Part shown: positions 6,508 to 30,627 of the stretch, piece by piece | How the letters are laid out: every line of letters starts with the position of its first letter | Position numbering within the stretch: the stretch's first letter is position 1 | Assembly: GCA_913050245.1 (NCBI GenBank) | Contig: CAJWZJ010000001.1 | Span: 118,617-182,616 of the forward strand | From: an uncultured bacterium | GTDB lineage: Bacteria > Desulfobacterota_D > UBA1144 | Direction: 5' to 3' | DNA length: 64,000 bases | Program-made: the position numbers and the translations under genes | Notes under the pieces: model-generated | What the model saw: the letters and a program-made list of their open reading frames with translations, nothing else | Database searches by the model: none | Told to the model about the DNA's origin: nothing

Positions 6508-6990
6508 TTAACCTCCACAGGATGATAGATTATTTTTAAAGATATATTTTTGATGATATTCTTCTGCAATGTAATAATCTGATACATCCGAAATACTTGT
6601 GACGATAGAATTATTGAACTTAGATTTATTTAGACTATTTATTACATCAGTAGCAATTTCTTTTTCATTATCTGAATTAGTAAAAATTGCAGATCTATAT
6701 TGAGTACCAACATCGGGGCCTTGCCTATTAAGTGAAGTTGGATCATGAATTGAAAAGAAAAAAAGGCATAAATCTTTAAAAGAAATAATACTAGAATCAT
6801 AGTGGACTTGCACAACCTCGGCATGACCTGTCATTCCTGAACATACATCAAAATAGGTAGGGTTCTTAAATTTTCCACCCATATATCCTACTGAAGTCTC
6901 TTTAACACCATCAAGTTGCATGAAATTATTCTCAACGCCCCAAAAACAGCCAGCACCAAATGTTGCAATTGAAAGGTCATTAACATCCAT
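6508..6990 (-). CDS. msrA: Peptide methionine sulfoxide reductase A
   Basis: The catalytic motif GAGCFWGVE is near the N-terminus. Length is 160 aa. Confidence 0.9.
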   Translation of the reverse strand: MDVNDLSIATFGAGCFWGVENNFMQLDGVKETSVGYMGGKFKNPTYFDVCSGMTGHAEVVQVHYDSSIISFKDLCLFFFSIHDPTSLNRQGPDVGTQYRSAIFTNSDNEKEIATDVINSLNKSKFNNSIVTSISDVSDYYIAEEYHQKYIFKNNLSSCGG

Positions 6991-18872: not shown

Positions 18873-19718
18873 ATGAAAAAATTCACATCTACAAAAGAAT
18901 ATGTAACAACTCCTGATTTAGAGCTTGCAGTTAACTCTTCAGTCACACTCGAAAAACCCTTGTTGGTTAAAGGTGAGCCTGGTACAGGTAAAACCTTGCT
19001 AGCTGAAGAAATTGCAAAGTCATTAGATACAGAGATTATCAAATGGCATATTAAATCAACAACAAAAGCACAGCAAGGTCTTTATGAGTATGATGCTATT
19101 ACAAGACTAAGGGATTCTCAATTAGGTGATTCCAGAGTTAAAGATATTTCAAACTATATTGTAAAAGGAAAGTTGTGGGAGGCTTTCACAGCAAATAAAA
19201 AGGTTGTGCTTTTAATTGATGAAATAGATAAAGCAGATATTGAGTTTCCTAATGATCTTCTTCAAGAGTTAGACAGAATGGAATTTTATGTTTATGAAAC
19301 AAAAGAAAATATAGTTGCAAAGAATAGACCAATTGTAGTCATCACAAGCAATAATGAAAAAGAATTACCAGATGCTTTTTTAAGGAGATGTATTTTCCAT
19401 TATATTAATTTTCCTGATAAAAAGACAATGGAAGAAATAGTAAATGTTCATTTTCCTAAAATTAAAAAGAAACTCCTATCAGAGGCATTAAATATTTTCT
19501 TTGATCTTAGAGAAGTTCCTAATTTAAAGAAATACCCTTCTACATCTGAGCTAATTGATTGGATTAAATTATTACTATCAGACGATATACCTAGGGATAT
19601 TTTATTAGAAAGAGATCAAACAAAAGCAATTCCTCCTTTACATGGTGCTTTATTAAAAAATGAGCAAGATGTTCAAATGCTTGAAAGACTTAGATTTATG
19701 TTAAGAAGAGAAAATTAA
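18873..19718 (+). CDS. MoxR-family AAA+ ATPase
   Basis: Walker A GEPGTGKT, Walker B LLIDEIDKA and sensor VITSNNE are present. Length is 281 aa. Confidence 0.85.
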   Translation: MKKFTSTKEYVTTPDLELAVNSSVTLEKPLLVKGEPGTGKTLLAEEIAKSLDTEIIKWHIKSTTKAQQGLYEYDAITRLRDSQLGDSRVKDISNYIVKGKLWEAFTANKKVVLLIDEIDKADIEFPNDLLQELDRMEFYVYETKENIVAKNRPIVVITSNNEKELPDAFLRRCIFHYINFPDKKTMEEIVNVHFPKIKKKLLSEALNIFFDLREVPNLKKYPSTSELIDWIKLLLSDDIPRDILLERDQTKAIPPLHGALLKNEQDVQMLERLRFMLRREN

Positions 19719-20893
19719 TGTTAATTGAATTTTTTAATACAATCAAAAAATCTGGTGTAAATGTATCACTAAAAGAACTTTTAGATCTAATTAAAGCTCT
19801 AGATTCTAACTTAATTAATAGATCCACTGAGGATTTTTACTATTTAAGTAGATCTATAATGGTTAAAGATGAAAAATACTATGATAAGTTTGATAAAGCT
19901 TTTGGTATTTTTTTTGAGGGTATTGAAAATCTTGATCTTGAATATTTAAAGAATGAAATACCTGAAGAATGGTTGAGAAAACAATTCGAAAAATCATTAA
20001 CAAAGGAGCAAAAAGATAAAATTAAGTCTTTAGGTGATCTTGAGGAATTAATGAAAAAATTTATGGAAACATTTAACGAGCAAAGGGAAAGACATCAGGG
20101 TGGCAATAAGTGGATTGGAACTGGTGGTACTTCTCCTTATGGTGCATATGGATCTAATCCGTTTGGCATACGGGTTGGACAAGATGGTAATAGAAACTAC
20201 TCAGCAGCAAAGGTTTGGGATGAAAGAAAATTTAGAAATCTTGATGATAATGTTGAAATAGGAACAAGAAATATTAAAGTAGCTTTAAGAAAACTTCGAA
20301 AATTTGCACGAGTTGAAGGTAATGAAGAATTAGACTTAGATCAAACCATAAAAAAAACAGCAAATAATGGTGGATTTATTGATATAAAAACAAGGCCTGA
20401 AAAGCAAAATCAAGTTAAGGTTTTGTTGTTCTTTGATATAGGTGGATCAATGGATCCACATATAGATTTATGTGAAGAATTGTTTTCCGCTGCAAGATAT
20501 GAATTTAAAAATTTGGAATTTTTTTATTTTCATAATTTTATTTATGAAGGTGTATGGAAGGATAATTCTAGAAGGAACGAGATAATAAACCTTTATGACA
20601 TAATAAATAAGTATTCGCAAGACTATAAAGTTATTATTGTTGGAGACGCATCGATGGGAATATATGAAGTAACTCATATTAATGGCTCAGTTGAACATTA
20701 CAATGAAAAGCCAGGAGAATTTTATTTTAATATTATGTTAAATCATTTTTCTAAGGTTGCTTGGTTAAATCCTATAGATTCAGATGAATGGGACTATTCA
20801 CAATCTATTGACTATATTAGATATTTAACTAAAAACAAAATGTTCCAACTTACAATCGATGGTATTAATAAGGCGGTAAAATTTTTAACTTAA
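19718..20893 (+). CDS. VWA-domain protein (CoxE-like partner of MoxR)
   Basis: Its start overlaps the MoxR stop (TAATG). A MIDAS-like motif LLFFDIGGSMD is present. Length is 391 aa. Confidence 0.7.
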   Translation: MLIEFFNTIKKSGVNVSLKELLDLIKALDSNLINRSTEDFYYLSRSIMVKDEKYYDKFDKAFGIFFEGIENLDLEYLKNEIPEEWLRKQFEKSLTKEQKDKIKSLGDLEELMKKFMETFNEQRERHQGGNKWIGTGGTSPYGAYGSNPFGIRVGQDGNRNYSAAKVWDERKFRNLDDNVEIGTRNIKVALRKLRKFARVEGNEELDLDQTIKKTANNGGFIDIKTRPEKQNQVKVLLFFDIGGSMDPHIDLCEELFSAARYEFKNLEFFYFHNFIYEGVWKDNSRRNEIINLYDIINKYSQDYKVIIVGDASMGIYEVTHINGSVEHYNEKPGEFYFNIMLNHFSKVAWLNPIDSDEWDYSQSIDYIRYLTKNKMFQLTIDGINKAVKFLT

Positions 20894-21264
20894 ACTTCCC
20901 TAGCTAATCTTATGAATAAATAAACAGATATAAATCCTAAAGCTATATTTAGTGATAGATAATTAAAAGCTTTAATGAAATCTTTTTGATGGATCATGTT
21001 TGCAAATTCAAAACTTAATGCTGAGAAAGTAGTCAAAGATCCTAGATATCCTATAACAAAAAAGTCTTTTAGATTTGGTTTTAAATCTAGTTGAGTAGAA
21101 ACAAAATAAAAAAAGCCTAAAAGAATTGAACCAATAACATTAACAACTAATGTAGATAAATAAGGTTTATCAGGAATTTCAATTGAAATAATATTATTAG
21201 TTATGAATCTCGTAATTGCCCCTAACGCTCCTCCTAGGGCAACTAAAACATAAGATAAAACCAT
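20890..21264 (-). CDS. crcB: Fluoride ion channel CrcB
   Basis: 124 aa with 4 TM helices. Motifs GGALGAITRF and GYLGSLTTFS are present. Confidence 0.85.
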   Translation of the reverse strand: MVLSYVLVALGGALGAITRFITNNIISIEIPDKPYLSTLVVNVIGSILLGFFYFVSTQLDLKPNLKDFFVIGYLGSLTTFSALSFEFANMIHQKDFIKAFNYLSLNIALGFISVYLFIRLAREV

Positions 21265-21301
21265 ATAGAAACATACATTAAAAAAAAATAATCGTAAAAT
21301 A

Positions 21302-22216
21302 TTAGTTCATCAAAGTAACGGATATATCATTTATGCTGGTTATATTTTTCTCAATATCATTAATGTATTTAACTGTAAACTCGTAGAAACTTTTAAAACT
21401 GAGCTTATCATTCTTGGGCTCTGATGATTCAGCTTTATAAGAAATATGATTTAAATATAAAAAAATAATGACAATAAAAAGTTTTTCATTAATATCAATT
21501 TCTTTAATAATTTTTTTAAAATAAGTTAATTTTTTTTTATTAATAATTTTGCATATTTTTATCCAATAATCTTGCTTTAACTTGTTATCTGAAATTGAAT
21601 CTGACTCTCTAAAATAAATCTTAAGGCTATTCGCAAATTCTTTATAAAAATTAAAAAAAATAGTATCATTGAAAATGTTATATTCTAAGTTTAACTTACC
21701 TTCTTTATAAACATGCATTAAACCGTCGGGATAAGGCCAAAAACCATTTTTCTCGAATTTTTTTAAAGCTATTTTTGAGATGATTTTCAGATAATGTTTG
21801 ACTTTATTTTTTTGATCATCATTAAATTGATTTGTAAAAATCATCAATCTCCAATAAAGTATGGCTTTTGATATAAGGTCTGCTTCTACTGATAACTTAT
21901 CAGTATCACTAATTTCCCAATCCTCTAGGGCATAAAATAAATATCGTGGTTCTTTGATTTGAAGGAAGTCTATCAATGAAGGAACTCGTTTAGTAAATGG
22001 ATTAGCTAAATTATCTGGATGTGTTGAAGTCTCCTTGCCCCACTTGTAAGACTTTCTTCCTTTAATCGATGTTAAGGGTTGAATCCTCCATCCTAAATTA
22101 AATGAACTTTTTTGATACTTAGCGTTGGTTCCATATCTTTTTGCATGTTCTTTTTTGTGGTATTTTTCAAGCTCTTCTTTCATCACAGAGCCATTATATA
22201 ATCTAAATACGGTCAT
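21302..22216 (-). CDS. Uncharacterized protein, member A of a locally expanded paralogous family
   Basis: Shares with B, C, D, E, F and G the core NPF...LIDFLQIKEPRYLFYALEDWE...ILYWRLMIF...DDQKNK. The C-terminal part contains FWPYPDGLMHVY, which is also in B. Confidence 0.7.
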   Translation of the reverse strand: MTVFRLYNGSVMKEELEKYHKKEHAKRYGTNAKYQKSSFNLGWRIQPLTSIKGRKSYKWGKETSTHPDNLANPFTKRVPSLIDFLQIKEPRYLFYALEDWEISDTDKLSVEADLISKAILYWRLMIFTNQFNDDQKNKVKHYLKIISKIALKKFEKNGFWPYPDGLMHVYKEGKLNLEYNIFNDTIFFNFYKEFANSLKIYFRESDSISDNKLKQDYWIKICKIINKKKLTYFKKIIKEIDINEKLFIVIIFLYLNHISYKAESSEPKNDKLSFKSFYEFTVKYINDIEKNITSINDISVTLMN

Positions 22217-22217
22217 A

Positions 22218-23150
22218 TTAGATACTAGTTACTACTATCTCCTGTTTATCAAATAAATTAGGAGACTTGTCCTTTAGAGCTTTAATCTCTTTAAAAATGG
22301 AATATATCAATTTCCAATCTGAGACTAAACCTTTTTTTGGCTCTTTCTTATGTGGAGACATATTATTGTGAAGCCACGATAGATATGAGGCTGCTACAAG
22401 ATCTGTATTTTGATAATTAAATGCAGTTTTAAAATGAACCTTATCAGGAAGATCTTTTTTATCAAATATTACTTGAAAAGTTCTTGTCCAAAACTCTTCT
22501 TTTTTAATTAAACTTGATTCATTCAATATCTCTCTTTCATATTTCATCAATTTATCTCTGAGTTGAATAAAATGATTAAAAAATATAAATGGCTGTTCAG
22601 GATTATAAGTTATATGAGATGAAAATTTATTTCTATTTTTGTAACTTTTATCTTTTTTATCAGAATATACATGAACTAGGCCATCACTATAGGGCCAAAA
22701 CTCTTTTCTAGGCATACTATCGTTAATTATTTTACTGGCGGTTTTCAGATAAAATTCAATCATTTTTCTTTCTTGATCCGATACTGAACCTGTAAAAAGC
22801 CTTAGTCTCCAATGCAATAGTGCTCTACAGGCTAGCTCCTCTTCAACTGGCGAGTTGTTCTTAGAAAAGTCCCAATCTTCTAACATATAAAAGAAAAATC
22901 TAGTTTCTTTTGTTTCAACAAAATCTACGAATGAAGGAACTTTACACGTTAATGGATTAGCTACATTTGATGGGAATACATCCTTACTTAAGCCCCATTT
23001 ATATCTCTTTCTACCTTCTAAATTGGTTCTAGGTTGAAAAAAAAGTCTTTGTTGTGCATATTCACCTTTTTTTCTTTTGATTTTTTTGGCATTTTTATCG
23101 AGTTCTTTCTTTTGCTCCTGTGAAGCAATTACAATTCCCATTATAGTCAT
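22218..23150 (-). CDS. Uncharacterized protein, member B of the paralogous family (tandem to A)
   Basis: GRKRYKWG...ANPL...FVDFVETKETRFFFYMLEDWD...LLHWRLRLF...FWPYSDGLVHVY aligns collinearly with A. The two are about 35-40% identical by eye and lie 1 nt apart. Confidence 0.7.
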   Translation of the reverse strand: MTIMGIVIASQEQKKELDKNAKKIKRKKGEYAQQRLFFQPRTNLEGRKRYKWGLSKDVFPSNVANPLTCKVPSFVDFVETKETRFFFYMLEDWDFSKNNSPVEEELACRALLHWRLRLFTGSVSDQERKMIEFYLKTASKIINDSMPRKEFWPYSDGLVHVYSDKKDKSYKNRNKFSSHITYNPEQPFIFFNHFIQLRDKLMKYEREILNESSLIKKEEFWTRTFQVIFDKKDLPDKVHFKTAFNYQNTDLVAASYLSWLHNNMSPHKKEPKKGLVSDWKLIYSIFKEIKALKDKSPNLFDKQEIVVTSI

Positions 23151-23186
23151 AAAATAATTTTAACATTAATCATTAAGGATAATTAG

Positions 23187-23570
23187 TTAAATCTTCTTAA
23201 AAGATAAAGAAGCAGAATTTATACAATATCTTAATTTAGTAGGTTCAGGCCCATCTGTGAATACATGTCCTAAGTGAGATCCGCAGCTTTTACATGAAAC
23301 CTCAACTCTTACCATCATATGAGAAGTATCTTCTTTAAAATCTAGAAGATTTTTATCAATACAATCAAAGAAGCTTGGCCAACCTGTACCGGAATCAAAT
23401 TTTGACTTAGAACTGAAAAGCTCATCATTACAACAAATGCACTTATATGTTCCGTCGAGTTTACAATCATGTAAATCTCCAGAAAATGGAGCTTCAGTGC
23501 CTGCCTCTTGGGTAACATGATACTGCATAGGAGTTAGCTTCTTTTTAAGATCATCTTTATTTTGCATCAT
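23187..23570 (-). CDS. msrB: Peptide methionine sulfoxide reductase B
   Basis: Two CxxC zinc knuckles and the catalytic region GTGWPSF...RYCINSASL are present. Length is 127 aa. Confidence 0.9.
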   Translation of the reverse strand: MMQNKDDLKKKLTPMQYHVTQEAGTEAPFSGDLHDCKLDGTYKCICCNDELFSSKSKFDSGTGWPSFFDCIDKNLLDFKEDTSHMMVRVEVSCKSCGSHLGHVFTDGPEPTKLRYCINSASLSFKKI

Positions 23571-23928
23571 TTATCTCCAAGTAATTATCTAAAAAAGATA
23601 TTATATCTTTAGACTCATACATCCATTCAGTCTTATCGGATACAATTTTTAGACATGGAACTTGTAATTTACCACCTCCCTTTATCAATTCTTGAGCATA
23701 ATCGGTATTTCTTCTAGCATCTTTGGTAGTTATAGAGATATTATTTTTTTTCATGTATCGCCTCACTCTCACACAGAAAGGACAAGCTTTAAATTCATAA
23801 ATCTCCATGTTTTTAACTTTTTCTTGTATATGTTTTATTTTATCAGAACTGAAATTTTTTGGTTTTGGTGAGGTAAGCCAATCCAAAAATAAAATAATTC
23901 TACCAAGAATAAACCTAATTATATTCAT
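23557..23928 (-). CDS. Glutaredoxin-like thioredoxin-fold protein with an N-terminal membrane anchor
   Basis: An N-terminal TM segment (IIRFILGRIILFLDWL) is followed by a CPFC active site and the glutaredoxin-like motif GGKLQVPCLKI. It overlaps msrB by 14 nt. Confidence 0.7.
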   Translation of the reverse strand: MNIIRFILGRIILFLDWLTSPKPKNFSSDKIKHIQEKVKNMEIYEFKACPFCVRVRRYMKKNNISITTKDARRNTDYAQELIKGGGKLQVPCLKIVSDKTEWMYESKDIISFLDNYLEINDAK

Positions 23929-23931
23929 AAT

Positions 23932-24342
23932 TTAATCACCTGGCGCCGATCCAAGTGCAGTACCTACGCTATTTAAAAGAGATCGGGCTATTTTTGATTT
24001 CTCATCATCTTGAAGAACCATATTTCTCCAATGACTAATAACATCTGAGAATATATTTTCAGTTAAAGGGTTACAGATATCATAAGATACTTCAGAATTC
24101 CATGTTTCAAGAGCTAGCAGAAAATACCCTGGCAGCTTCTTGTTAAAAAATTTGGCTAAATATGGATTCTTCCTTGCAAAATCCTGCCATTCTTTTATTT
24201 CCATTGTTCTAATGTTTTCTGGAAACATATCATCCCTATCGAAATATTCATATCTTTTCATATAAGTTTCGGCATCATTCTCATTAATCATTGTCCTACC
24301 AATGACTGAAACTGTTGATCCACCTGTACATTCTCGACTCAT
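23932..24342 (-). CDS. Uncharacterized protein, short member C of the paralogous family (core domain only, possible remnant)
   Basis: NPYLAKFF...GYFLLALETWNSEV...VISHWRNMVLQDDEKSKI aligns to the core of A and B. At 136 aa it lacks the C-terminal part. Confidence 0.55.
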   Translation of the reverse strand: MSRECTGGSTVSVIGRTMINENDAETYMKRYEYFDRDDMFPENIRTMEIKEWQDFARKNPYLAKFFNKKLPGYFLLALETWNSEVSYDICNPLTENIFSDVISHWRNMVLQDDEKSKIARSLLNSVGTALGSAPGD

Positions 24343-24456
24343 AATATTTATAATGTATTATAACTATTGTTATGATACAAGATACTATATTTTATTATTT
24401 TTCCATTACCTGTATTATAATGATCATATTAATTATATATCTCATTAAAAAATAAT

Positions 24457-24873
24457 ATGTGGAAGTGCAAACATACTTGGAAAAAATCATCAATTAATAC
24501 ATTGTGGTGCTTACTTGGGTGTTCAATAGGGGATCTTGGAACAATTTTCTATTTTCAAAATGTAGTCCATAGCTTCAGTGCTTTATCGGTAATGCTAATG
24601 GCTATAATTGCGGGTTTATTAACAAGCATTGCATTAGAAACTTTTATTCTTTTAAAGGATTTTAATTTTAAAGATGCATTAAAGATAGCCTTAGGAATGA
24701 GTCTTATAAGCATGATTGGAATGGAAATAGCAATGAATTCAGTAGATTTTATTTTAAATGGTAAACCAGTTATTAATATTGAAACAATTGTTCCTGTATT
24801 GTTAGCAGGATTTATAGCACCTTTACCATATAATTATTGGAGGTTAAAGAAATACGGCATAGCATGCCATTAA
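24457..24873 (+). CDS. Small polytopic membrane protein (possibly DUF4396-like)
   Basis: 138 aa with 3-4 TM helices and an N-terminal Cys-rich segment WCLLGCSIGD. The family assignment is from memory only. Confidence 0.5.
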   Translation: MWKCKHTWKKSSINTLWCLLGCSIGDLGTIFYFQNVVHSFSALSVMLMAIIAGLLTSIALETFILLKDFNFKDALKIALGMSLISMIGMEIAMNSVDFILNGKPVINIETIVPVLLAGFIAPLPYNYWRLKKYGIACH

Positions 24874-25464
24874 CTAGGCACTTTTCATTTCACGGTATTT
24901 TCTTTCTTCTTCTGTAAAAGCTCCGTCGGCAACTGGAATAATAGATGGAATCAATGAACCACCTAATCTAAGAAAGCATCTTTCTAAAAATTTTTGTGCT
25001 TCACTTGCATTAAAAGCAGCTCTTTTAAATGTTAAATATGATCTCCAATAGTTAATTGAGGACCAGACTACAGTCGGGGGAGTTACTTTGTCTAATAATT
25101 CATTATAGGTTCCAATATGAGCCATTGATAATATTGTAATATCAATAATTTCATCACCTTCCATAGAACTAGGATCCCATGATTCTGGATCTTCTATGAC
25201 TCTACCCTGAAGAATTGATATATCATGCATTACAGCTTCTATTAACTTATTAGGGTCTTTGGTCTGAAGATATTCTTCAAGGCAATCATAAGCAACGAGT
25301 TTGAAAGGATTATGACTGTGATAGCCCTCACCCTTTTCGCTAGTCATTTGCACATTACCTTTCATCTGTGGTCTGAAAAGAGTTTTATCAAGCAAACCAT
25401 CCGGGAATATTGACTCAATAATTGATTCTTGTTCTTTTTTTTCTTTAAAATCTATACCTTGCAT
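24874..25464 (-). CDS. Uncharacterized protein, member D of the paralogous family
   Basis: SHNPFKLVAYDCLEEYLQTKDPNKLIEAVMHD...VVWSSINYWRSYLTF matches the core of A and B (NPF, [ED][FY]LQ.K[ED]P, YWR). Confidence 0.55.
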   Translation of the reverse strand: MQGIDFKEKKEQESIIESIFPDGLLDKTLFRPQMKGNVQMTSEKGEGYHSHNPFKLVAYDCLEEYLQTKDPNKLIEAVMHDISILQGRVIEDPESWDPSSMEGDEIIDITILSMAHIGTYNELLDKVTPPTVVWSSINYWRSYLTFKRAAFNASEAQKFLERCFLRLGGSLIPSIIPVADGAFTEEERKYREMKSA

Positions 25465-25614
25465 AGAGCATATTATTACTGGGATTTAATTTAAATCAAA
25501 CAAAATTAAAATTTTGATTATAATAATATGATGGATAAAAGGTTTTTCGGACTTCTTTTTTTAGGTGTTTTTTTGGTATTAATGTATTACCTTTTTAAAA
25601 TAGTTGATTTATAA

Positions 25615-25893
25615 CTAATTCTTTCCGTCCCAGAATTTTTTTATATCGGACCATAATTTTGCTCTGCCTTCTTTAGTTTTACACAGTTTTAATGAACTTA
25701 TAAGAATTCTATAATACATTCTTAATTTATACCTTCCATCGTTTGAAAAACTTAAATATATTGCATAAAGTATAAAAAAAGGTAATAAGATTGGTATGCC
25801 CATTGGCATTGCTAAAATAAATAGAAAAATTCTATTAATTATCTTTTTGAACTTAGCGTATATGCTCTTAAAGTTTGAATTCGAGTTGATCAT
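25615..25893 (-). CDS. Hypothetical small membrane protein (92 aa)
   Basis: Only the ORF and two predicted TM helices support it. It overlaps the 3' end of the DUF45 gene. Confidence 0.35.
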   Translation of the reverse strand: MINSNSNFKSIYAKFKKIINRIFLFILAMPMGIPILLPFFILYAIYLSFSNDGRYKLRMYYRILISSLKLCKTKEGRAKLWSDIKKFWDGKN

Positions 25894-26632
25894 TTGGATT
25901 TTTATCTTCTATATTTTCTTCTTGATTTTTATTAAATAGAGTTCCCATCTCATTTTTAAACATGGAGCAAATATGGTCATTTTTCTTTAACCAATTTTCA
26001 TACTTGATATAGTCAGGCATCATTCTCTCGACTTGAACCCAATAATCATCCGAATGATTATGATGGACTATATGTGCTAACTCATGAACTACCAAATATG
26101 ATATTACCTCATGGGGAATTAAAATAGCCCTCCAACTAAAATTCAAATTTCCATTACCTGAACAAGAACCCCATTGTGAATATGCATTTGTTATAATTAT
26201 CTTATTAAAATTAATATCATATAGTTTTGAGAATCTATTTGTAAGGTTTAAAATGTACTCTCGAGCACTGTCTTTATACCAATCAATAAAAACCTTGTTA
26301 GCTAATTTGATAAAAGCGCTAGATAGATAGAAAGTTCCATTCTCATATTTTAAAGGTATGGATTTATTATCGACAATTTTTAATGGTCTTTCTTTTCCTA
26401 GATAGAGGAAAGTTTCTCCTTCTTCATATCTTTTGTGTAAGTCGTTCAAATATTTAGCTTTAGTGATTTGCTGAGTTCTTAAAAGATAGAATTTCTTCTC
26501 GTCTATATACCTTTCAATTGACTCCATACTTTCATTCATTGGAGCTCTAACTATAATATGGCCTTCAACAGAAATTTGAATTTCTAAAGATTTTCTTTCA
26601 GATCTGATTATCTGATCAACTTTTACCGACAT
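25868..26632 (-). CDS. YgjP-like (DUF45) metal-dependent hydrolase
   Basis: The signature zincin motif HELAHIVHHNHSDDYW and the N-terminus RSERKSLEIQISVEGHIIVRAP are typical of the DUF45/YgjP family. Confidence 0.75.
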   Translation of the reverse strand: MSVKVDQIIRSERKSLEIQISVEGHIIVRAPMNESMESIERYIDEKKFYLLRTQQITKAKYLNDLHKRYEEGETFLYLGKERPLKIVDNKSIPLKYENGTFYLSSAFIKLANKVFIDWYKDSAREYILNLTNRFSKLYDINFNKIIITNAYSQWGSCSGNGNLNFSWRAILIPHEVISYLVVHELAHIVHHNHSDDYWVQVERMMPDYIKYENWLKKNDHICSMFKNEMGTLFNKNQEENIEDKNPNDQLEFKL

Positions 26633-26685
26633 TTTAGGCTACTATAACACAAAAAAAAATAAAAATTAACAATAATTTAAGATAT

Positions 26686-26997
26686 TTATGATAACAAGAT
26701 AAATATAACTGTGAGGAAAGAACCAAAAACAAGACCCACAAAAGTCGCTGCCAAAAGTTCTGTTTGGTCTTTTGATAATTTTGGGGGTTTAGGGAAAGAA
26801 TCAGTATCTAAAAATTCAAAAAGTCCTATGTGCGCAAATATAATTTTTGAAGGGATTGCAAAAGCCACACTGGCTATAATCATTTTTGCCCAAAGAGGCA
26901 ATGTTTCATAGAAAATAGGCTCATCTGCAGCTGCAGGAAGAGTTAAAATAAATATAAACAAAAATAAATAATTTAAAGATAATTTCATAGAACTCAT
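26686..26997 (-). CDS. Small exported/membrane protein (103 aa)
   Basis: A signal peptide (MSSMKLSLNYLFLFIFILTLPAAADEP) is followed by two hydrophobic helices. Confidence 0.45.
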   Translation of the reverse strand: MSSMKLSLNYLFLFIFILTLPAAADEPIFYETLPLWAKMIIASVAFAIPSKIIFAHIGLFEFLDTDSFPKPPKLSKDQTELLAATFVGLVFGSFLTVIFILLS

Positions 26998-27031
26998 TGA
27001 ATTATAATTCCAAATATAGGAAAATCAAATA

Positions 27032-27781
27032 ATGCCATCATGTTATTTGCAAGTATATGAAAAACTGACTAGCTCATCCAAAGATTATAAATATTGGAAA
27101 GAATATACATCCTTCTATGAAAGTTATTGGGGTGGTCCAACTTCACCCTATGGAATTTGGTTTGGAAACGAATATGAAACATTCGAAAATGCTTTGATTG
27201 ATCATATGAAGATACAAAAAAAAGAATTAAAACAATGTCTATTCATAAAAGAAAATGATTTTTATTATATATGCCCTTCAGATCCAAACAGAGATAATCA
27301 AAACTACTCATTTTTAGTAAATAATATTGTCCCTCTTCACTGGTTCCTACTCTTTGATCATAGCCAAAAAAAGGTATTTAAAACGCATTGGGGCTTTGGT
27401 GCAATACATTATACAAATACCGTCTCAAAATCATTAAATAAAATGAAAGAGTTTATTAATTTAAAAAAACAATTAAATAAAACAGATATAGAATTCAGGA
27501 ATAATTATTTAAAACTGATTGATGATTTTTTTGAGACTTGCTCATGGCTTGAGACTTTTGATAGCGAAGGGATATTAATTCTTAATTATGGAGATTTGCT
27601 GGCAAATTTTCCGCAGAACAGTTTAGATAAAGAAGACTCTGTAAAAATTATGGATGATATTAAAGAGATGATTGGGAAAGAATTGTTTAAGGACGCTTCA
27701 GATATTCTTAATTTTTTGATAGAAAGATGGACTAAAATAGAGTTTGCAAATCAAAAGAATGAAAGTAATTTAAGTAATTAA
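27032..27781 (+). CDS. Uncharacterized protein, probable divergent member E of the paralogous family
   Basis: FENALIDHMKIQKKE...PLHWFLLFDHSQKK resembles LIDFLQIKEPR...YWRLMIF...DDQKNK of member A. The match is weaker than for B, C and D. Confidence 0.5.
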   Translation: MPSCYLQVYEKLTSSSKDYKYWKEYTSFYESYWGGPTSPYGIWFGNEYETFENALIDHMKIQKKELKQCLFIKENDFYYICPSDPNRDNQNYSFLVNNIVPLHWFLLFDHSQKKVFKTHWGFGAIHYTNTVSKSLNKMKEFINLKKQLNKTDIEFRNNYLKLIDDFFETCSWLETFDSEGILILNYGDLLANFPQNSLDKEDSVKIMDDIKEMIGKELFKDASDILNFLIERWTKIEFANQKNESNLSN

Positions 27782-28476
27782 GATTTTTTTTCATTTACTT
27801 TCTTCTCTATCCATTTCATAGGTATTAACTTTGGTGGTATTAATAATTTATCTTTATCCTTAACAAAATCATTTTTATATTCAAGACTCCATTTATAGCT
27901 TAAAAAGTATTGTGTAATAGTTAATGTGAGATCTTTTAATTTTTTTATTTTAGACCACTCGTTAATCTTACTTTGCATGGGAATTATTTTTGCTTTCGAT
28001 GGATGAAATAGTGTTCTTAAAGCAAAATTTCTTTCTTGATCATTTGCAGGTTTTAAATCTTTTTTCATATCTGACAACATCTTATATATATACTTGTAAG
28101 TTCCTACAACATGTTCATTGCTAAACGGTAATTTTCTTTTTCTTTTTTTTGGTATGTTAGCAGCAAGTCCTTCAGCAAATTGTTGAATATTTAATTTGTC
28201 CTCGTCACTTGGGTATTTTGATTGCATTGTCCAAGCTATTATCTGATATCTAACGGTTGGGTGGTCTAAAACACATGGGTGTTCTTTTATCGCAAGGGCT
28301 AAGTGCAATGGCTTTTTAGTTAATTGAAAATCCCTAAAATATTTACAGAAGAAAAGCCAAGAAATTATTCCAGTCCTTCCTTCATGAACTTGTTCAATAA
28401 AGTTTTTTATTTCTCTGAAGAAGCTATTTGAAAGAATTTCAGAGACAATCCAAGGATCTTCTTTAATCTTAGGCAT
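27778..28476 (-). CDS. Uncharacterized protein, probable member F of the paralogous family
   Basis: IKNFIEQVHEGRTGIISWLFF...YQIIAWTMQSKYPSDEDKLNIQQF matches the core of A in order and spacing. Confidence 0.55.
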   Translation of the reverse strand: MPKIKEDPWIVSEILSNSFFREIKNFIEQVHEGRTGIISWLFFCKYFRDFQLTKKPLHLALAIKEHPCVLDHPTVRYQIIAWTMQSKYPSDEDKLNIQQFAEGLAANIPKKRKRKLPFSNEHVVGTYKYIYKMLSDMKKDLKPANDQERNFALRTLFHPSKAKIIPMQSKINEWSKIKKLKDLTLTITQYFLSYKWSLEYKNDFVKDKDKLLIPPKLIPMKWIEKKVNEKKS

Positions 28477-28507
28477 ATATAAATTCTAACATGAAAAATT
28501 TATAAAA

Positions 28508-29242
28508 TTATATGAGCTTCATTCTCATTGAAATAGATTGATAGGTTGTACGATATTTATTTGCTAATATATGCATAACAATCTTATCAATAGAATCAAC
28601 CTCATGGAATGCTCTTGAAGCAATTACGCCCGAATAAGGGGCTAATGATTTTTGATAAATCTGTGCAAAATTACATAGAGCTTCATCAATCAACAATGTA
28701 TTTATATGATCTGAGAGCATAATATTTCCTTTGTTACTTTTTTTTGGGGTATCTAAAAAAAATGGATAATATTTATTTAAAAATTTATGAATCTTGTTCT
28801 TTAGAGAGTTGAATTCAACTAACAGTTTTTTATCTGTAGGGAATTTTTCAGCATCAGGGCCATAGTAAACTAGCTTTGATAGTGAACCAGAAGAAGCTGC
28901 CTCAAATATTGCCTTTAACCAATTCCTAGCTGCAGACCACCTATCGAAATTCTTTTTTGAAGAAAGCATTGTGTGAGCAGATTCTAATTCATTTAAAACT
29001 GATTGAAGTAAGTTAATAACTATTTTTACTAGTGATTCACGCTCCAGAGTTAGCTCATCTTTCCAACCTTTTACATAATTTTCATCATATAAAATTCTGG
29101 GTTCTTCCTTAATTTGTTCAATAAGACTCTCTAGTAAGTCAGCTTCTTTAAGAATATCAGGGTAATACTTCTCCTTAAAGTATTCTACACTTACAGAAAT
29201 ATCATCAATGTTTGTTACTTTAGTAAGCAATTTATTTTTCAT
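28508..29242 (-). CDS. Uncharacterized protein, probable member G of the paralogous family
   Basis: LIEQIKEEPRILYDENYVKGW...DRWSAARNWLKAIF matches LIDFLQIKEPRYLFYALEDW...ILYWRLMIF of member A. Its start overlaps the fumarase-family stop by 4 nt. Confidence 0.55.
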   Translation of the reverse strand: MKNKLLTKVTNIDDISVSVEYFKEKYYPDILKEADLLESLIEQIKEEPRILYDENYVKGWKDELTLERESLVKIVINLLQSVLNELESAHTMLSSKKNFDRWSAARNWLKAIFEAASSGSLSKLVYYGPDAEKFPTDKKLLVEFNSLKNKIHKFLNKYYPFFLDTPKKSNKGNIMLSDHINTLLIDEALCNFAQIYQKSLAPYSGVIASRAFHEVDSIDKIVMHILANKYRTTYQSISMRMKLI

Positions 29243-30627
29243 AAACTTGGTTTCACCATTGTTTTTGGATCTAAAATCTTATCTGACTTAGACTTATCCA
29301 AAATCTTATCTTCATTAACAACCTGTCTGACAGTTTTACCATTTTTATATGCCTTCTTAGCAACATTAGCAGCATTATTATAACCAATAATAGGAGCTAA
29401 ACTTGTACACATTGCTAAACTATCTTCAATGTAACTTTCACATTTTTCTTTATCTACTTTTATATCTTTAATGCAATCTAAAGTGAAAGCTTTGACTGAT
29501 GATGATAAAATCTCAATTGATTCCATAATGTTGTGAGCCATCACAGGCATCATCACATTAAGCTGGAAATTTCCTGATTGGCCAGCGATTGTTATAGTGA
29601 GATCGTTTCCAATTACTTGTGCACAAACTTGAGTTAGAGACTCCGCTAATACTGGGTTAACCTTCCCGGGCATTATTGATGACCCAGGCTGTATTGATGG
29701 GAGAATGATTTCTCCAAATCCACATCTTGGACCACTTCCTAGCCATCTGATATCATTAGCTATCTTCATCAAAGATGTTGCACATGTTTTAAGCGAGCCA
29801 CTCAGATTAACTATTGAATCTTTTGAAGATTGAGCCTCAAAATGATCTTTAGCTTCATAAAATTTTATTCCAATTTTTTTTGATATTTCTCTTGATATAT
29901 TTGCTGCAAACTTTGGATGTGAGTTAATACCTGTACCAACAGCAGTTCCGCCCTGTGCTAAAAATTTTAAAGCGCTTGAAGATGATGAAATAAAATCAAT
30001 AGAATTTTGAACCATTTGAGAAAAACCACCAAATTCTTGGCCCAAAGTCATAGGAGTAGCATCTTGCAAATGAGTTCTTCCAATTTTGTATATTTTGGAA
30101 AAACTTTTTGATTTTTTGTCTAGCTCTTTTTTTAATAATTTTAGGCTTGGTATTAGATCTCTATTGGCTAATTTAAGGGCTGAAATATGCATAGCTGTTG
30201 GAATAACATCATTGCTTGATTGACATAAATTTACATGATCATTTGGATGAATTTTACTTTTACTTTTAGAATATCTATTAGCAAGAGATGAAATCACTTC
30301 ATTTGCATTCATATTTGTCGATGTTCCTGATCCAGTTTGAAAAATATCAACAACAAATTCATTATCATGCTTACTGTCAATAACTTCTTGAGCACCTTTC
30401 ATGATACTTTTAGATATATTTTTCGGAATTAATTTTAAATCACCGTTAACTTTAGCAGCACAAAATTTAATTACTCCTAAAGCCTCGATAAATGGCCTTT
30501 TGAATTTTAAATCACTTATTGGGAAATTTTTAATCGCTCTGGCTGTTTGAGCAGCATAAAGAGCATTCTTTGGTACTCTCATTTGACCCATTGAATCTGA
30601 TTCTAACCTGTAATCTTTCTTAGACAT
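29239..30627 (-). CDS. fumC: Class II fumarate hydratase / aspartate ammonia-lyase family enzyme (FumC-like)
   Basis: The signature GSSIMPGKVNP is present in a 462-aa product. The C-terminal region resembles FumC (KKAYKNGKT) but KVNPV is aspartase-like, so the subfamily is ambiguous. Confidence 0.8.
   Translation of the reverse strand: MSKKDYRLESDSMGQMRVPKNALYAAQTARAIKNFPISDLKFKRPFIEALGVIKFCAAKVNGDLKLIPKNISKSIMKGAQEVIDSKHDNEFVVDIFQTGSGTSTNMNANEVISSLANRYSKSKSKIHPNDHVNLCQSSNDVIPTAMHISALKLANRDLIPSLKLLKKELDKKSKSFSKIYKIGRTHLQDATPMTLGQEFGGFSQMVQNSIDFISSSSSALKFLAQGGTAVGTGINSHPKFAANISREISKKIGIKFYEAKDHFEAQSSKDSIVNLSGSLKTCATSLMKIANDIRWLGSGPRCGFGEIILPSIQPGSSIMPGKVNPVLAESLTQVCAQVIGNDLTITIAGQSGNFQLNVMMPVMAHNIMESIEILSSSVKAFTLDCIKDIKVDKEKCESYIEDSLAMCTSLAPIIGYNNAANVAKKAYKNGKTVRQVVNEDKILDKSKSDKILDPKTMVKPSL

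Follow-up and report, generated by a model that had tools for sequence, protein, structure and literature searches.

Orphan genes beside msrB, grx and fumC in a gene-dense segment of a streamlined marine Dadabacteria genome: probably several short transcription units

The window, a 64,000-nt stretch of DNA, belongs to the streamlined genome (29% GC) of a marine pelagic member of the Dadabacteria; in it, the genes A–G lie among msrB, a glutaredoxin gene (grx) and a fumarase-family gene (fumC). In the initial annotation they were taken as one paralog family, translationally coupled to these enzymes, and the question raised by the locus is whether this arrangement ties the family to methionine-sulfoxide repair and thiol redox chemistry. 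The explanation preferred here, and judged rather probable, is an ordinary, extremely gene-dense segment in which orphans are interleaved with housekeeping genes and which is divided into about seven short units, not organised as one redox operon. The adjacency of the family members other than C to msrB, grx or fumC would then result from genome compaction and inherited gene order.

Table 1. Genes and predicted upstream elements of the segment, by position in the window.
Feature	Position	Strand	Description
crcB fluoride channel	20890..21264	-	Pfam CRCB and NCBIfam matches; 37 nt after A
A	21302..22216	-	304 aa; follows B by 1 nt; paralog sharing 38% identity with it
B	22218..23150	-	310 aa, basic core family member; disordered basic tail, helical N-domain, 3-stranded sheet, helical C-domain
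Predicted extended −10 of B	23157..23165	-	TGT-TAAAAT; ends 6 nt before the ATG of B, within the 36-nt msrB–B spacer
MsrB	23187..23570	-	Pfam SelR 2.6e-50; TIGR00357 score 181.6, cutoff 113
Glutaredoxin-like protein (Grx)	23557..23928	-	active site C49-P-F-C52; Pfam PF00462 and NCBIfam Grx matches
C	23932..24342	-	136 aa, acidic; family N-domain alone; first cistron of C–grx–msrB
Conserved region upstream of C	24343..24387	-	TCTTG(A/T)ATCAT 11-nt block, 12-nt gap, TATAAT
DUF4396 membrane protein	24457..24873	+	Pfam PF14342, E 1e-28
D	24874..25464	-	196 aa, acidic orphan; marginal candidate relative of A/B/C N-domain
s92	25615..25893	-	92 aa, small, hydrophobic, poorly conserved; overlaps ygjP 3' end by 26 nt
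YgjP-like (DUF45) zincin-type hydrolase	25868..26632	-	Pfam PF01863, E 7e-47
m100	26686..26997	-	103 aa, orphan; hydrophobic segments at both termini on visual inspection
E	27032..27781	+	249 aa; 3' end overlaps F 3' end by 4 nt
F	27778..28476	-	232 aa, basic orphan; marginal candidate relative of A/B/C N-domain
Predicted extended −10 of F	28483..28491	-	TGT-TAGAAT; ends 6 nt before the ATG of F, within the 31-nt G–F spacer
G	28508..29242	-	244 aa, all-helical orphan; ATGA start overlaps fumC stop by 4 nt
fumC	29239..30627	-	fumarase/aspartase-family lyase; Pfam Lyase_1 and FumaraseC_C

The open reading frames and junctions described earlier (gaps of 3 nt for C/grx, 36 nt for msrB/B and 1 nt for B/A, overlaps of 14 nt for grx/msrB and 4 nt for fumC/G) were all recovered, and the enzyme identities hold in Pfam and NCBIfam: MsrB/SelR, a CPFC glutaredoxin, Lyase_1 with FumaraseC_C, thioredoxin, DUF4396 and a YgjP-like protein. 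The naming of fumC is slightly ambiguous: the top PDB matches are class II fumarases, but the NCBIfam fumC_II score (573.6) lies under its cutoff (664.75), while that for the aspartase subfamily NF008909 (559.4) lies over its own (510). The gene is leadered, with an AGGAG Shine-Dalgarno, and is divergent from trxA (Pfam Thioredoxin) across a 96-nt gap. With trxA, grx and msrB, three thiol-redox genes are found within ~8 kb, a modest degree of clustering and possibly a meaningful one. The membrane anchor claimed for Grx is not borne out, as the N-terminal segment contains two Arg and one Asp, and its hydrophobic/amphipathic motif IIRFILGRIILFLDW is conserved, also in homologs of other phyla. 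At the lower end, crcB closes the same-strand run; Rfam detected only tRNAs over the window, and no fluoride riboswitch for crcB.

The family is smaller than A–G. A and B (E 1e-43) together with C (blastp E 1e-5 against A; hhalign probability 95.7% against A/B) are a genuine paralog family, previously undescribed, with a common helical N-domain of ~100 aa carrying the motifs NP(L/F)T, (F/L)(V/I)DF(L/V)ETK, LE(D/T)W and (Y/H)WR. Membership of D and F is possible but would be very remote. In hhalign they score against the combined N-domain profile with E 0.0049 and 0.0065, respectively, and D also against C (E 0.003, motifs collinear); none of 120 column shuffles of its own alignment reached the score of either. 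Shuffled G and E alignments scored up to 26–28, above the D and F scores, and HMMER did not join D and F to the family. G and E themselves score at null level against the family, consistent with separate orphans unrelated to A/B/C. Of the claimed family, A, B and C stand, D and F are marginal (E ~0.005), and G and E drop out; the proposed co-transcription of the family with fumC keeps its fumC→G coupling but loses G as a family member. If D and F belong, a five-member paralog family lies within 9 kb of a paralog-poor genome, which is unusual and unexplained by compaction.

No known homolog of the orphans was found in Pfam, NCBIfam, PHROGs, PADLOC or a PDB sequence search, and no fold counterpart by Foldseek against PDB and BFVD. 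This includes B (AF2 pLDDT 69.6; nothing in PDB or BFVD), G (pLDDT 70; no match in Foldseek and PDB searches) and F (no match in Pfam and PDB); E orthologs carry a DUF8083 label in precomputed Pfam. Relatives of B amount to 21 clusters among 5.8 billion proteins and 28 matches among 1.84 billion representatives. The A–G proteins occur only in this clade (homologs of D and G being restricted to it), with the exception of a single divergent family member, P0048. The ORFs are nevertheless real genes under strong purifying selection (pN 0.04–0.25 against pS ~0.7 across genes). D is the most constrained gene of the block (pN 0.04–0.06), followed by G (0.06, against 0.11 for fumC) and F (0.07–0.14), all three being more constrained than fumC or msrB. 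The least constrained is A (0.23–0.26), an accessory copy: other clade members lack it, carry a truncated form or show it homogenised with B.

That A–G serve MsrB/Grx (and FumC) as accessory factors, substrates or chaperone-like partners and are expressed together with these enzymes from redox-repair operons is unlikely. The adjacency that speaks for it is invariant over the clade loci (16 GTDB and ~30 metagenome loci, all from Dadabacteria/Thermodesulfobacteriota MAGs, e.g. TMED58 and UBA1144): C–grx–msrB–B, extended in part by A, is present in every marine Dadabacteria locus covering that stretch, with C→grx and grx→msrB overlapping or nearly so, and the three thiol-redox genes lie within 8 kb. 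However, every clade locus shows the whole GT4…AAA block (~20 kb) in the same order, plainly unrelated flanking genes included. The median same-strand gap across the window is 1 nt (81% <=40 nt, 42% overlapping), overlap extends even to convergent genes, and the coding share is ~94%; for the marine Dadabacteria clade, a genome of 1.22 Mb with few paralogs and a coding density >96% has been described (PMC8115339). Because tight spacing is the norm of this genome, the tight junctions carry little information, and the operon structure does not by itself link the family to redox repair. Clade-restricted orphans (A, B, C, D, F, G, m100 and s92) are unusually concentrated in the block.

The msrB/grx synteny sought in relatives is found throughout the clade but not beyond it. 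At 46 loci with Grx orthologs from outside the clade (33–50% identity), neither msrB nor a family gene was found in the flanks inspected (up to 6 kb on each side), and P0048 is neighboured by PPIase and acyl-CoA enzymes, with no msrB or grx in its gene context. In addition, A is dispensable: several genomes with msrB and grx lack it or have it truncated; G lies outside the family; the opposite-strand DUF4396 gene stands between D and the C–grx–msrB unit; and no conserved Cys or unusual Met content was found in family members.

Promoter-like elements also argue against a single operon; the calls are consensus-level predictions in AT-rich DNA. The −10 element is the sole conserved block in the aligned msrB–B spacers, and likewise in the G–F spacers. 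For B, a strict match is found in 16 of 20 distinct clade spacers and the other four carry TGTTAAACT (39% of shuffles); for F, TGn-TAnnAT is found in 19 of 20 (34% of shuffles). D has a 150-nt gap upstream, a −10-like TAATAT ends 5 nt before its ATG and is found in 17 of 20 distinct sequences, and the ygjP element TGTGTTATAGT is found in all 17 distinct sequences, as a near variant in three of these. Since these conserved elements end 5–9 nt before the start codons, B, F, D and ygjP are predicted to be separate leaderless-type transcripts. Across the window, eight genes have a Shine-Dalgarno-like motif, 15 a −10 near the ATG, and none both, although the excess of −10 elements 4–9 nt before an ATG is marginal (15 against 10.6 expected, P ~0.07). 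m100, probably a membrane or secreted protein, is preceded by a canonical promoter, TTGATT-16-TATAAT, ending 3 nt before its ATG.

The spacer elements argue against translational coupling at msrB–B and G–F, as had been claimed for the whole arrangement, but real coupling is retained at fumC→G, where the tabulated clade loci range from −4 to +3 nt, and also at C→grx→msrB and at B→A. Co-translation of C with the grx–msrB pair is demonstrable from sequence: the C→grx distance in the clade loci tabulated lies between −4 and +9 nt. The msrB start is preceded by GGAG. The invariance of C→grx and fumC→G across the clade would also fit true functional partnership. The run would most likely comprise about seven short units, namely fumC–G, F, m100, ygjP–s92, D, C–grx–msrB and B–A–crcB, several of which would begin as leaderless-type mRNAs. 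Since no terminators were predicted above chance, the same-strand run may be transcribed through its whole length, a point in favour of the partner reading of A–G.

Among the unknown genes, C alone has a credible tie to the repair enzymes. MsrB has its catalytic C116 and zinc-binding CxxC pairs (C44/C47 and C93/C96), and T62 is found at the canonical resolving Cys position, within SG(T/S)GWPSF as in MsrB3 and 2K8D in PDB alignments. It is established that glutaredoxin can regenerate methionine sulfoxide reductases having a single catalytic Cys (PMC6162775). We infer that Grx may be the reductant for this MsrB, and a dedicated Grx partner is plausible because the canonical resolving Cys is lacking; an extra C70, conserved in the clade, could be an alternative resolving Cys. 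It is quite unlikely that C alone serves such a Grx–MsrB module as its dedicated non-catalytic subunit or adaptor, with A, B and perhaps D and F using the N-domain for unrelated partners. In favour of such a role for C are its N-domain-only structure, its position as first cistron close to grx, its acidity (pI 4.9, against 9.5 for Grx), the possible need of MsrB for Grx, and the unusual conservation of its upstream region. There, 15 of 15 distinct clade sequences carry the block, with near-invariant columns, and TATAAT (24357–24362) ends 14 nt before the ATG; a palindrome, TATAAT-NN-ATTATA, is embedded there and shows no enrichment across the window. However, the basis is adjacency within one collinear clade, and Grx orthologs elsewhere neighbour neither C nor msrB. 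Of the redox or protein-repair role first proposed for all members, a plausible role for C is what is left, with its action as a non-catalytic partner of the Grx–MsrB pair being speculative; for the remaining members the evidence does not discriminate.

That the ORFs are spurious or form a mobile, phage-derived or defence/toxin–immunity island is very improbable and largely refuted: tandem paralogs, variable A copy number with gene conversion, the lack of homologs and weak sub-threshold DrmE_C matches in 7 of 11 G orthologs would fit, but PHROGs and PADLOC gave no match, GC content equals that of the flanks, the location does not vary among the clade genomes, the borders show no integrase, repeats or tRNA, and purifying selection is strong, for D, G and F beyond that on fumC.

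The preferred reading, a gene-dense segment of short units, can be compared with several known systems. Genes with leaderless mRNAs whose −10 lies about 6–8 nt ahead of the start codon occur in Actinobacteria, Deinococcus and elsewhere. In the window, B, F, D and some further genes resemble these in carrying TGnTAnAAT-like elements 5–9 nt before the ATG without a Shine-Dalgarno, although here they are sequence predictions and their enrichment in this single window is marginal. The A/B/C N-domain is small, well conserved and lineage-restricted like Pfam DUF-type families but has no counterpart in Pfam, NCBIfam, PDB or BFVD at any threshold tried. With Thr at the canonical resolving-Cys position and an overlapping CPFC glutaredoxin gene, MsrB is like Grx-regenerated MsrBs without a resolving Cys, of which plant plastidial MSRB1 is an example (PMC6162775). 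Unlike in those, the pairing is suggested here by adjacency only, with clade-specific Cys70 as a possible alternative resolving Cys, and the Grx orthologs of other phyla are not beside msrB. The ~94% coding share, the clade-conserved order and the 0–4 nt gaps or overlaps between functionally unrelated genes are as in streamlined marine bacteria (SAR11-like architecture; marine Dadabacteria, Graham & Tully 2021, PMC8115339). In contrast to that picture, in which few or no duplications are reported, the block holds a real paralog family and many clade-restricted orphans.

The tight gene spacing of the block at 20,890–30,627 carries no information beyond the genomic background. The initial annotation had read this spacing, together with a family of seven putative paralogs (A–G), as a link between proteins of unknown function and the neighboring msrB, grx and fumC genes. 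Among the 48 same-strand neighbor pairs in the window, the median gap is 1 nt; gaps of at most 40 nt make up 81% and those of at most 5 nt 62%, and 42% of the pairs overlap. The packing is no looser around functionally unrelated genes, such as those for a 4HBT thioesterase, Lgt and an ABC transporter, and the convergent pairs VWA/crcB, D/DUF4396 and E/F also abut or overlap.

The description of the genes was sound. All the junction distances given are correct, and the named enzymes and domains are borne out by Pfam and NCBIfam: SelR/MsrB, glutaredoxin with its CPFC motif, Lyase_1 plus FumaraseC_C, thioredoxin, DUF4396 (101 bits) and YgjP-like (DUF45, 160.5 bits), the last two each over the Pfam gathering score. 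The HExxH motif in ygjP is HELAH, and GYD and CrcB domains are likewise matched in the neighborhood. The fumC gene probably encodes a TCA-cycle enzyme, although this label is not certain, since the NCBIfam cutoffs are split and PDB favors fumarase. Its product falls under the equivalog cutoff of TIGR00979 (573.6 vs 664.75) and over the cutoff of the aspartate ammonia-lyase (aspartase) subfamily NF008909 (559.4 vs 510), while its top PDB matches are class II fumarases (462 bits, vs 415 for aspartase). The GSSIMPGKVNP signature is present.

Features of the block and its flank. Here m100 and s92 are small orphan proteins. The pN ranges were measured, as part of pN/pS, against three relatives, with synonymous sites saturated (pS ~0.7). 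Element counts refer to spacers in the clade-wide alignment.
Feature	Coordinates	Strand	Length (aa)	pN	Near-ATG −10 site	Promoter-like element or remark
fumC	29239–30627	−	462	0.11–0.15		
G	28508–29242	−	244	0.06–0.08		
F	27778–28476	−	232	0.07–0.14	28483–28491	TG(T/G)-TAnnAT, ends 6–9 nt before ATG; 19/20; shuffles 34%
E	27032–27781	+		0.18–0.21		interrupts minus-strand run
m100	26686–26997	−	103		27001–27028	TTGATT-16-TATAAT, ends 3 nt before ATG; also found by generic scan
ygjP	25868–26632	−	254		26641–26649	TGTGTTATAGT; 17/17 counting a near variant in 3
s92	25615–25893	−	92			
D	24874–25464	−	196	0.04–0.06	25470–25475	TAATAT; 17/20
DUF4396	24457–24873	+				interrupts minus-strand run
upstream of C	24343–24387	−				near-invariant region
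C	23932–24342	−	136	0.10–0.12		invariant TATAAT 14 nt before ATG, conserved 11-nt block ahead; 15/15
grx	23557–23928	−	123	0.12–0.18		
msrB	23187–23570	−	127	0.10–0.16		
B	22218–23150	−	310	0.15–0.19	23157–23165	TG(T)TA(A/G)AAT, ends 5–7 nt before ATG; strict in 16/20 distinct spacers, 4 with TGTTAAACT; shuffles 39%
A	21302–22216	−	304	0.23–0.26		
crcB	20890–21264	−	124			
AAA/VWA pair	18873–20893	+				

The most economical reading of the block is as seven short predicted transcription units, many of which would start in leaderless fashion: fumC–G, F, m100, ygjP–s92, D, C–grx–msrB and B–A–crcB. Translational coupling, which had been proposed for family members along the run, holds for fumC→G (−4 nt), C→grx (+3 nt), grx→msrB (−14 nt) and B→A (+1 nt), junctions that are tight clade-wide where both genes occur, but not for msrB→B (36 nt) or G→F (31 nt). 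The latter two are predicted to be uncoupled because conserved TGn-TAnAAT-type elements without a Shine-Dalgarno (SD) motif lie 5–9 nt before the ATGs of B and F. D cannot share a unit with C, because DUF4396 intervenes on the opposite strand. A generic promoter and terminator scan was discarded as evidence, its counts being equal to those in shuffles; since terminator-like hairpins are at chance level, some read-through between units may occur.

In the clade-wide spacer alignment, −10 elements just upstream of several ATGs are kept while the remaining spacer diverges. No SD motif was found at B, F, D, ygjP, m100 or C; such motifs were found at fumC, trxA and msrB, and at grx an AGGTGA missed by the motif scan was read by eye. 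Across the window, 8 genes have an SD-like motif, 15 have a near-ATG −10 hexamer and none has both. The hexamers end 4–9 nt before the ATG in SD-less genes and are often TGn-extended, and their enrichment at this position is only marginal (15 vs 10.6 expected, P about 0.07). Further genes of this kind lie at 6990, 18808, 18873, 32451, 46724 and 49667; crcB has no such element, and GGAG is found there in several relatives. This pattern suggests that leaderless mRNAs may be widespread in marine Dadabacteria (hereafter the clade), and, if so, the near-ATG −10 elements would alter operon prediction in the phylum.

The region upstream of C, with the arrangement TCTTG(A/T)ATCAT, 12 nt, TATAATACATTATAAATATT-ATG, is near-invariant across the clade, with conservation far above that of other spacers. 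A TTGAAT within it was rejected as a −35 element because its spacer to the −10 is merely 12 nt. A 6-2-6 palindrome, TATAAT-NN-ATTATA, overlaps the −10 and is possibly an operator; an operator shared with other genes was rejected, as the palindrome occurs only at chance frequency in the window.

At the downstream end of the block, the fluoride channel gene crcB closes the B–A run and has a 4-nt overlap with the convergent VWA gene; it is missing from two of the compared loci (L019 and L047). A fluoride riboswitch, considered as the reason for this linkage, is found nowhere in the window. The pair directly downstream of and convergent with crcB encodes a VWA/CoxE-like protein and an AAA ATPase that weakly matches the MadB family of ATPases; the pair is highly conserved, at 74–95% identity across the clade.

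Marine Dadabacteria are cosmopolitan, uncultured, streamlined heterotrophs of the ocean. The pelagic genomes are ~1.22 Mb and >96% coding, with few or no duplications (PMC8115339), and the window is consistent with such a genome (29% GC, ~94% coding). All 16 of the 16 GTDB loci are marine MAGs, with the informative labels Candidatus Dadabacteria, Thermodesulfobacteriota and "Deltaproteobacteria TMED58", the rest being named 'bacterium' or inconsistently. Every clade locus that covers the neighborhood has the identical order GT4–(DUF3943, in some subclades)–GYD–trxA<>fumC–G–F–E–m100–ygjP–s92–D–DUF4396–C–grx–msrB–B–(A)–crcB–VWA–AAA, the entire 20 kb being collinear. Synteny in the clade is whole-neighborhood collinearity of close relatives, not specific retention. 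A metagenome scan recovered 46 loci outside the clade (GC 33–67%) in which this Grx has orthologs of 33–50% identity, the majority extending over its N-terminal region; within the flanks covered, at most 6 kb to either side, neither msrB nor a family gene lies near Grx in any of the 46. The divergent A/B/C homolog P0048 (locus L024) is neighbored by a PPIase, two genes of unknown function, an acyl-CoA dehydrogenase, an HpcH/HpaI-family gene and a methylmalonyl-CoA mutase, and no msrB or grx was found near it. Adjacency of the family to msrB and grx is not seen at either type of locus outside the clade. Gene proximity is nearly uninformative in such genomes, because they are tightly packed and collinear throughout.

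A, B and C are established as a paralog family by sequence comparison. A and B share 38% identity (blastp E 8e-43), C matches A with E 1e-5 (blastp) and the A/B profile with 95.7% probability (hhalign, E 9e-9), and an HMM of the N-domain, the ~100-aa helical region common to the three, recovers A, B and C with E values of 3e-51, 9e-56 and 1e-47. The family as first drawn, A to G, is therefore upheld for A, B and C, but not for G and E, which score 9.4 and 13.4 against the N-domain profile, at or under the shuffle mean of 14, and have no blastp or HMM link to A/B/C. G, the gene overlapping fumC, and E are orphans unrelated to this family. E orthologs carry PF26312 (DUF8083) in precomputed Pfam hits; the E protein of the window has no match in the local Pfam copy.

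D and F are candidate members. Against the combined N-domain profile they score 23.8 (E 0.0049) and 23.6 (E 0.0065), respectively, and their motifs are collinear with those of the family: FxP(Q/R)..KG, NP(F/L), (L/F)xx(Y/F)(L/V)(Q/E)TK.P, E.W, (Y/H/A)W and P(F/Y/V)..(D/E)(G/H). Column shuffling of its own alignment, 120 times for D and 120 times for F, never reached the score of either protein. However, shuffled G and E alignments score up to 26–28, so that the tail of the null overlaps the D and F scores. With HMMER, the N-domain matches D at only E 0.14 and does not match F.

The family is very narrowly distributed. B-like proteins form only 21 clusters among 5.8 billion proteins, and the A/B/C profile, when run exhaustively against 1.84 billion representatives, matched only 28 proteins: clade members and fragments, the chimeric-looking P0040, and P0048. 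The last (250 aa; L024:5873-6625; contig 34.7% GC) bridges C and B in sequence and is the only clearly divergent member found. A is absent from L001, L016, L018–L020, L037, L038, L041, L042 and L047–L049, and shortened to ~157 aa in L010, L011, L031, L032 and L034. In one subclade (L006:10001-11903, and also L004, L005, L015, L043, L054 and L091), the gene occupying the A position shares 80% protein identity with B, and 90% DNA identity over 779 nt, but keeps an A-type N-terminus. This combination indicates gene conversion.

The orphans are under strong constraint. Against the nearest relatives (L012/L008), pN is 0.04–0.08 for D, G and F and 0.10–0.13 for fumC, msrB and grx; D, G and F are at least as constrained as the neighboring enzymes. 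None of the three has homologs beyond the clade. Searches of A–G, m100 and s92 against Pfam, NCBIfam, PHROGs and PADLOC, including per-member alignment scans, gave nothing consistent, and profile searches of PDB sequences with the orphan families were empty or sub-threshold. In the AF2 model of B (pLDDT 69.6), the basic tail is disordered, and the N-domain (72–141) and C-domain are both helical, with a three-stranded sheet (151–182) between them; that of G (pLDDT 70.3) is all-helical. Foldseek gave no PDB match with E <1 for either model, and no BFVD match with E under about 0.9 for B. Recurring sub-threshold matches of G to DrmE_C and SERRATE_N were judged to be helical-composition noise, and an HTH seen by eye at the G C-terminus is without Pfam or Foldseek support.

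The coordinates in the initial annotation are accurate, but both supports of its redox proposal fall: close spacing and conserved gene order are what this genome shows by default, and the proposed A-to-G family holds only in part. The block instead consists of clade-restricted, strongly constrained orphans, including the A/B/C family, among the predicted short transcription units of a streamlined genome. As gene organization this is ordinary; the A/B/C orphan family is undescribed, and is a genuine paralog family in a type of genome said to lack duplications. D, G, F, B and C are candidates for lineage-specific functions, being clade-restricted, without relatives in sequence or fold, and constrained like core enzymes or more strongly. 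Guilt by association fails in streamlined genomes, and this concrete demonstration is a guard against over-annotation.

A role in redox repair is credible for C only, and even there it is rather unlikely. The one positive tie of a family member to this process is the co-translation of C with the grx–msrB pair; A, B, D, F and G have nothing but proximity in their favor. A more specific proposal, and a less probable one still, is that the N-domain of A, B and C (possibly also of D and F) is a protein-interaction module born in marine Dadabacteria. C would then act as an adaptor, co-translated and stoichiometric, for targeting or regulating an MsrB that has a single catalytic Cys and is recycled by Grx, and the larger paralogs would carry the module to other partners. 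If this were true, a lineage-specific family would have expanded in a genome otherwise shedding paralogs. Among these proteins, the pI is basic for A, B and F (9.4–9.7) and acidic for C and D (4.9). An apparent natural C–Grx fusion, P0033 (L104:3001-3336), was rejected because it comes from a frameshift-rich long-read assembly, with a 1-nt indel in a C-run; msrB and B are likewise broken there. The family proteins as Met- or Cys-rich substrates of Msr or Grx can be dismissed, as Met is not elevated, Cys richness was not seen, and no conserved Cys was seen in family members.

Grx itself matches PF00462 with 40 bits (cutoff 22.9) and has a conserved C49-P-F-C52. Its N-terminus had been described as a membrane anchor. 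Residues 2–20 are hydrophobic yet include R5, R10 and D16, with a mean Kyte-Doolittle value of ~1.3 by hand calculation, and the motif (I/V)RF(I/V)LG(R/K)II is conserved in homologs across phyla at 33–67% GC (L056-L103), none of which adjoins msrB. This conservation across phyla suggests a specific functional motif, unusual for a simple or generic anchor.

MsrB is well supported by PF01641 (169.7 bits) and TIGR00357 (181.6 bits vs a cutoff of 113), with the catalytic C116 in RYC(I/V)NS and the Zn CxxC pairs C44/C47 and C93/C96. Glutaredoxins or unusual thioredoxins are known to regenerate MSRs that have a single catalytic Cys (PMC6162775). As grx overlaps msrB, the CPFC Grx is a plausible dedicated reductant of this MsrB, with the adjacency of the two genes confined to the clade. 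An extra clade-conserved Cys, C70 (FDCI or YDCI), lies seven residues on from the canonical resolving position and might serve as an alternative resolving Cys. The resolving Cys of the 2-Cys type is missing, since in SGTGWPSF the Cys of CGWP is replaced by T62. In PDB alignments, this position is like that of human MsrB3 and the 2K8D enzyme, and unlike that of the 2-Cys MsrBs.
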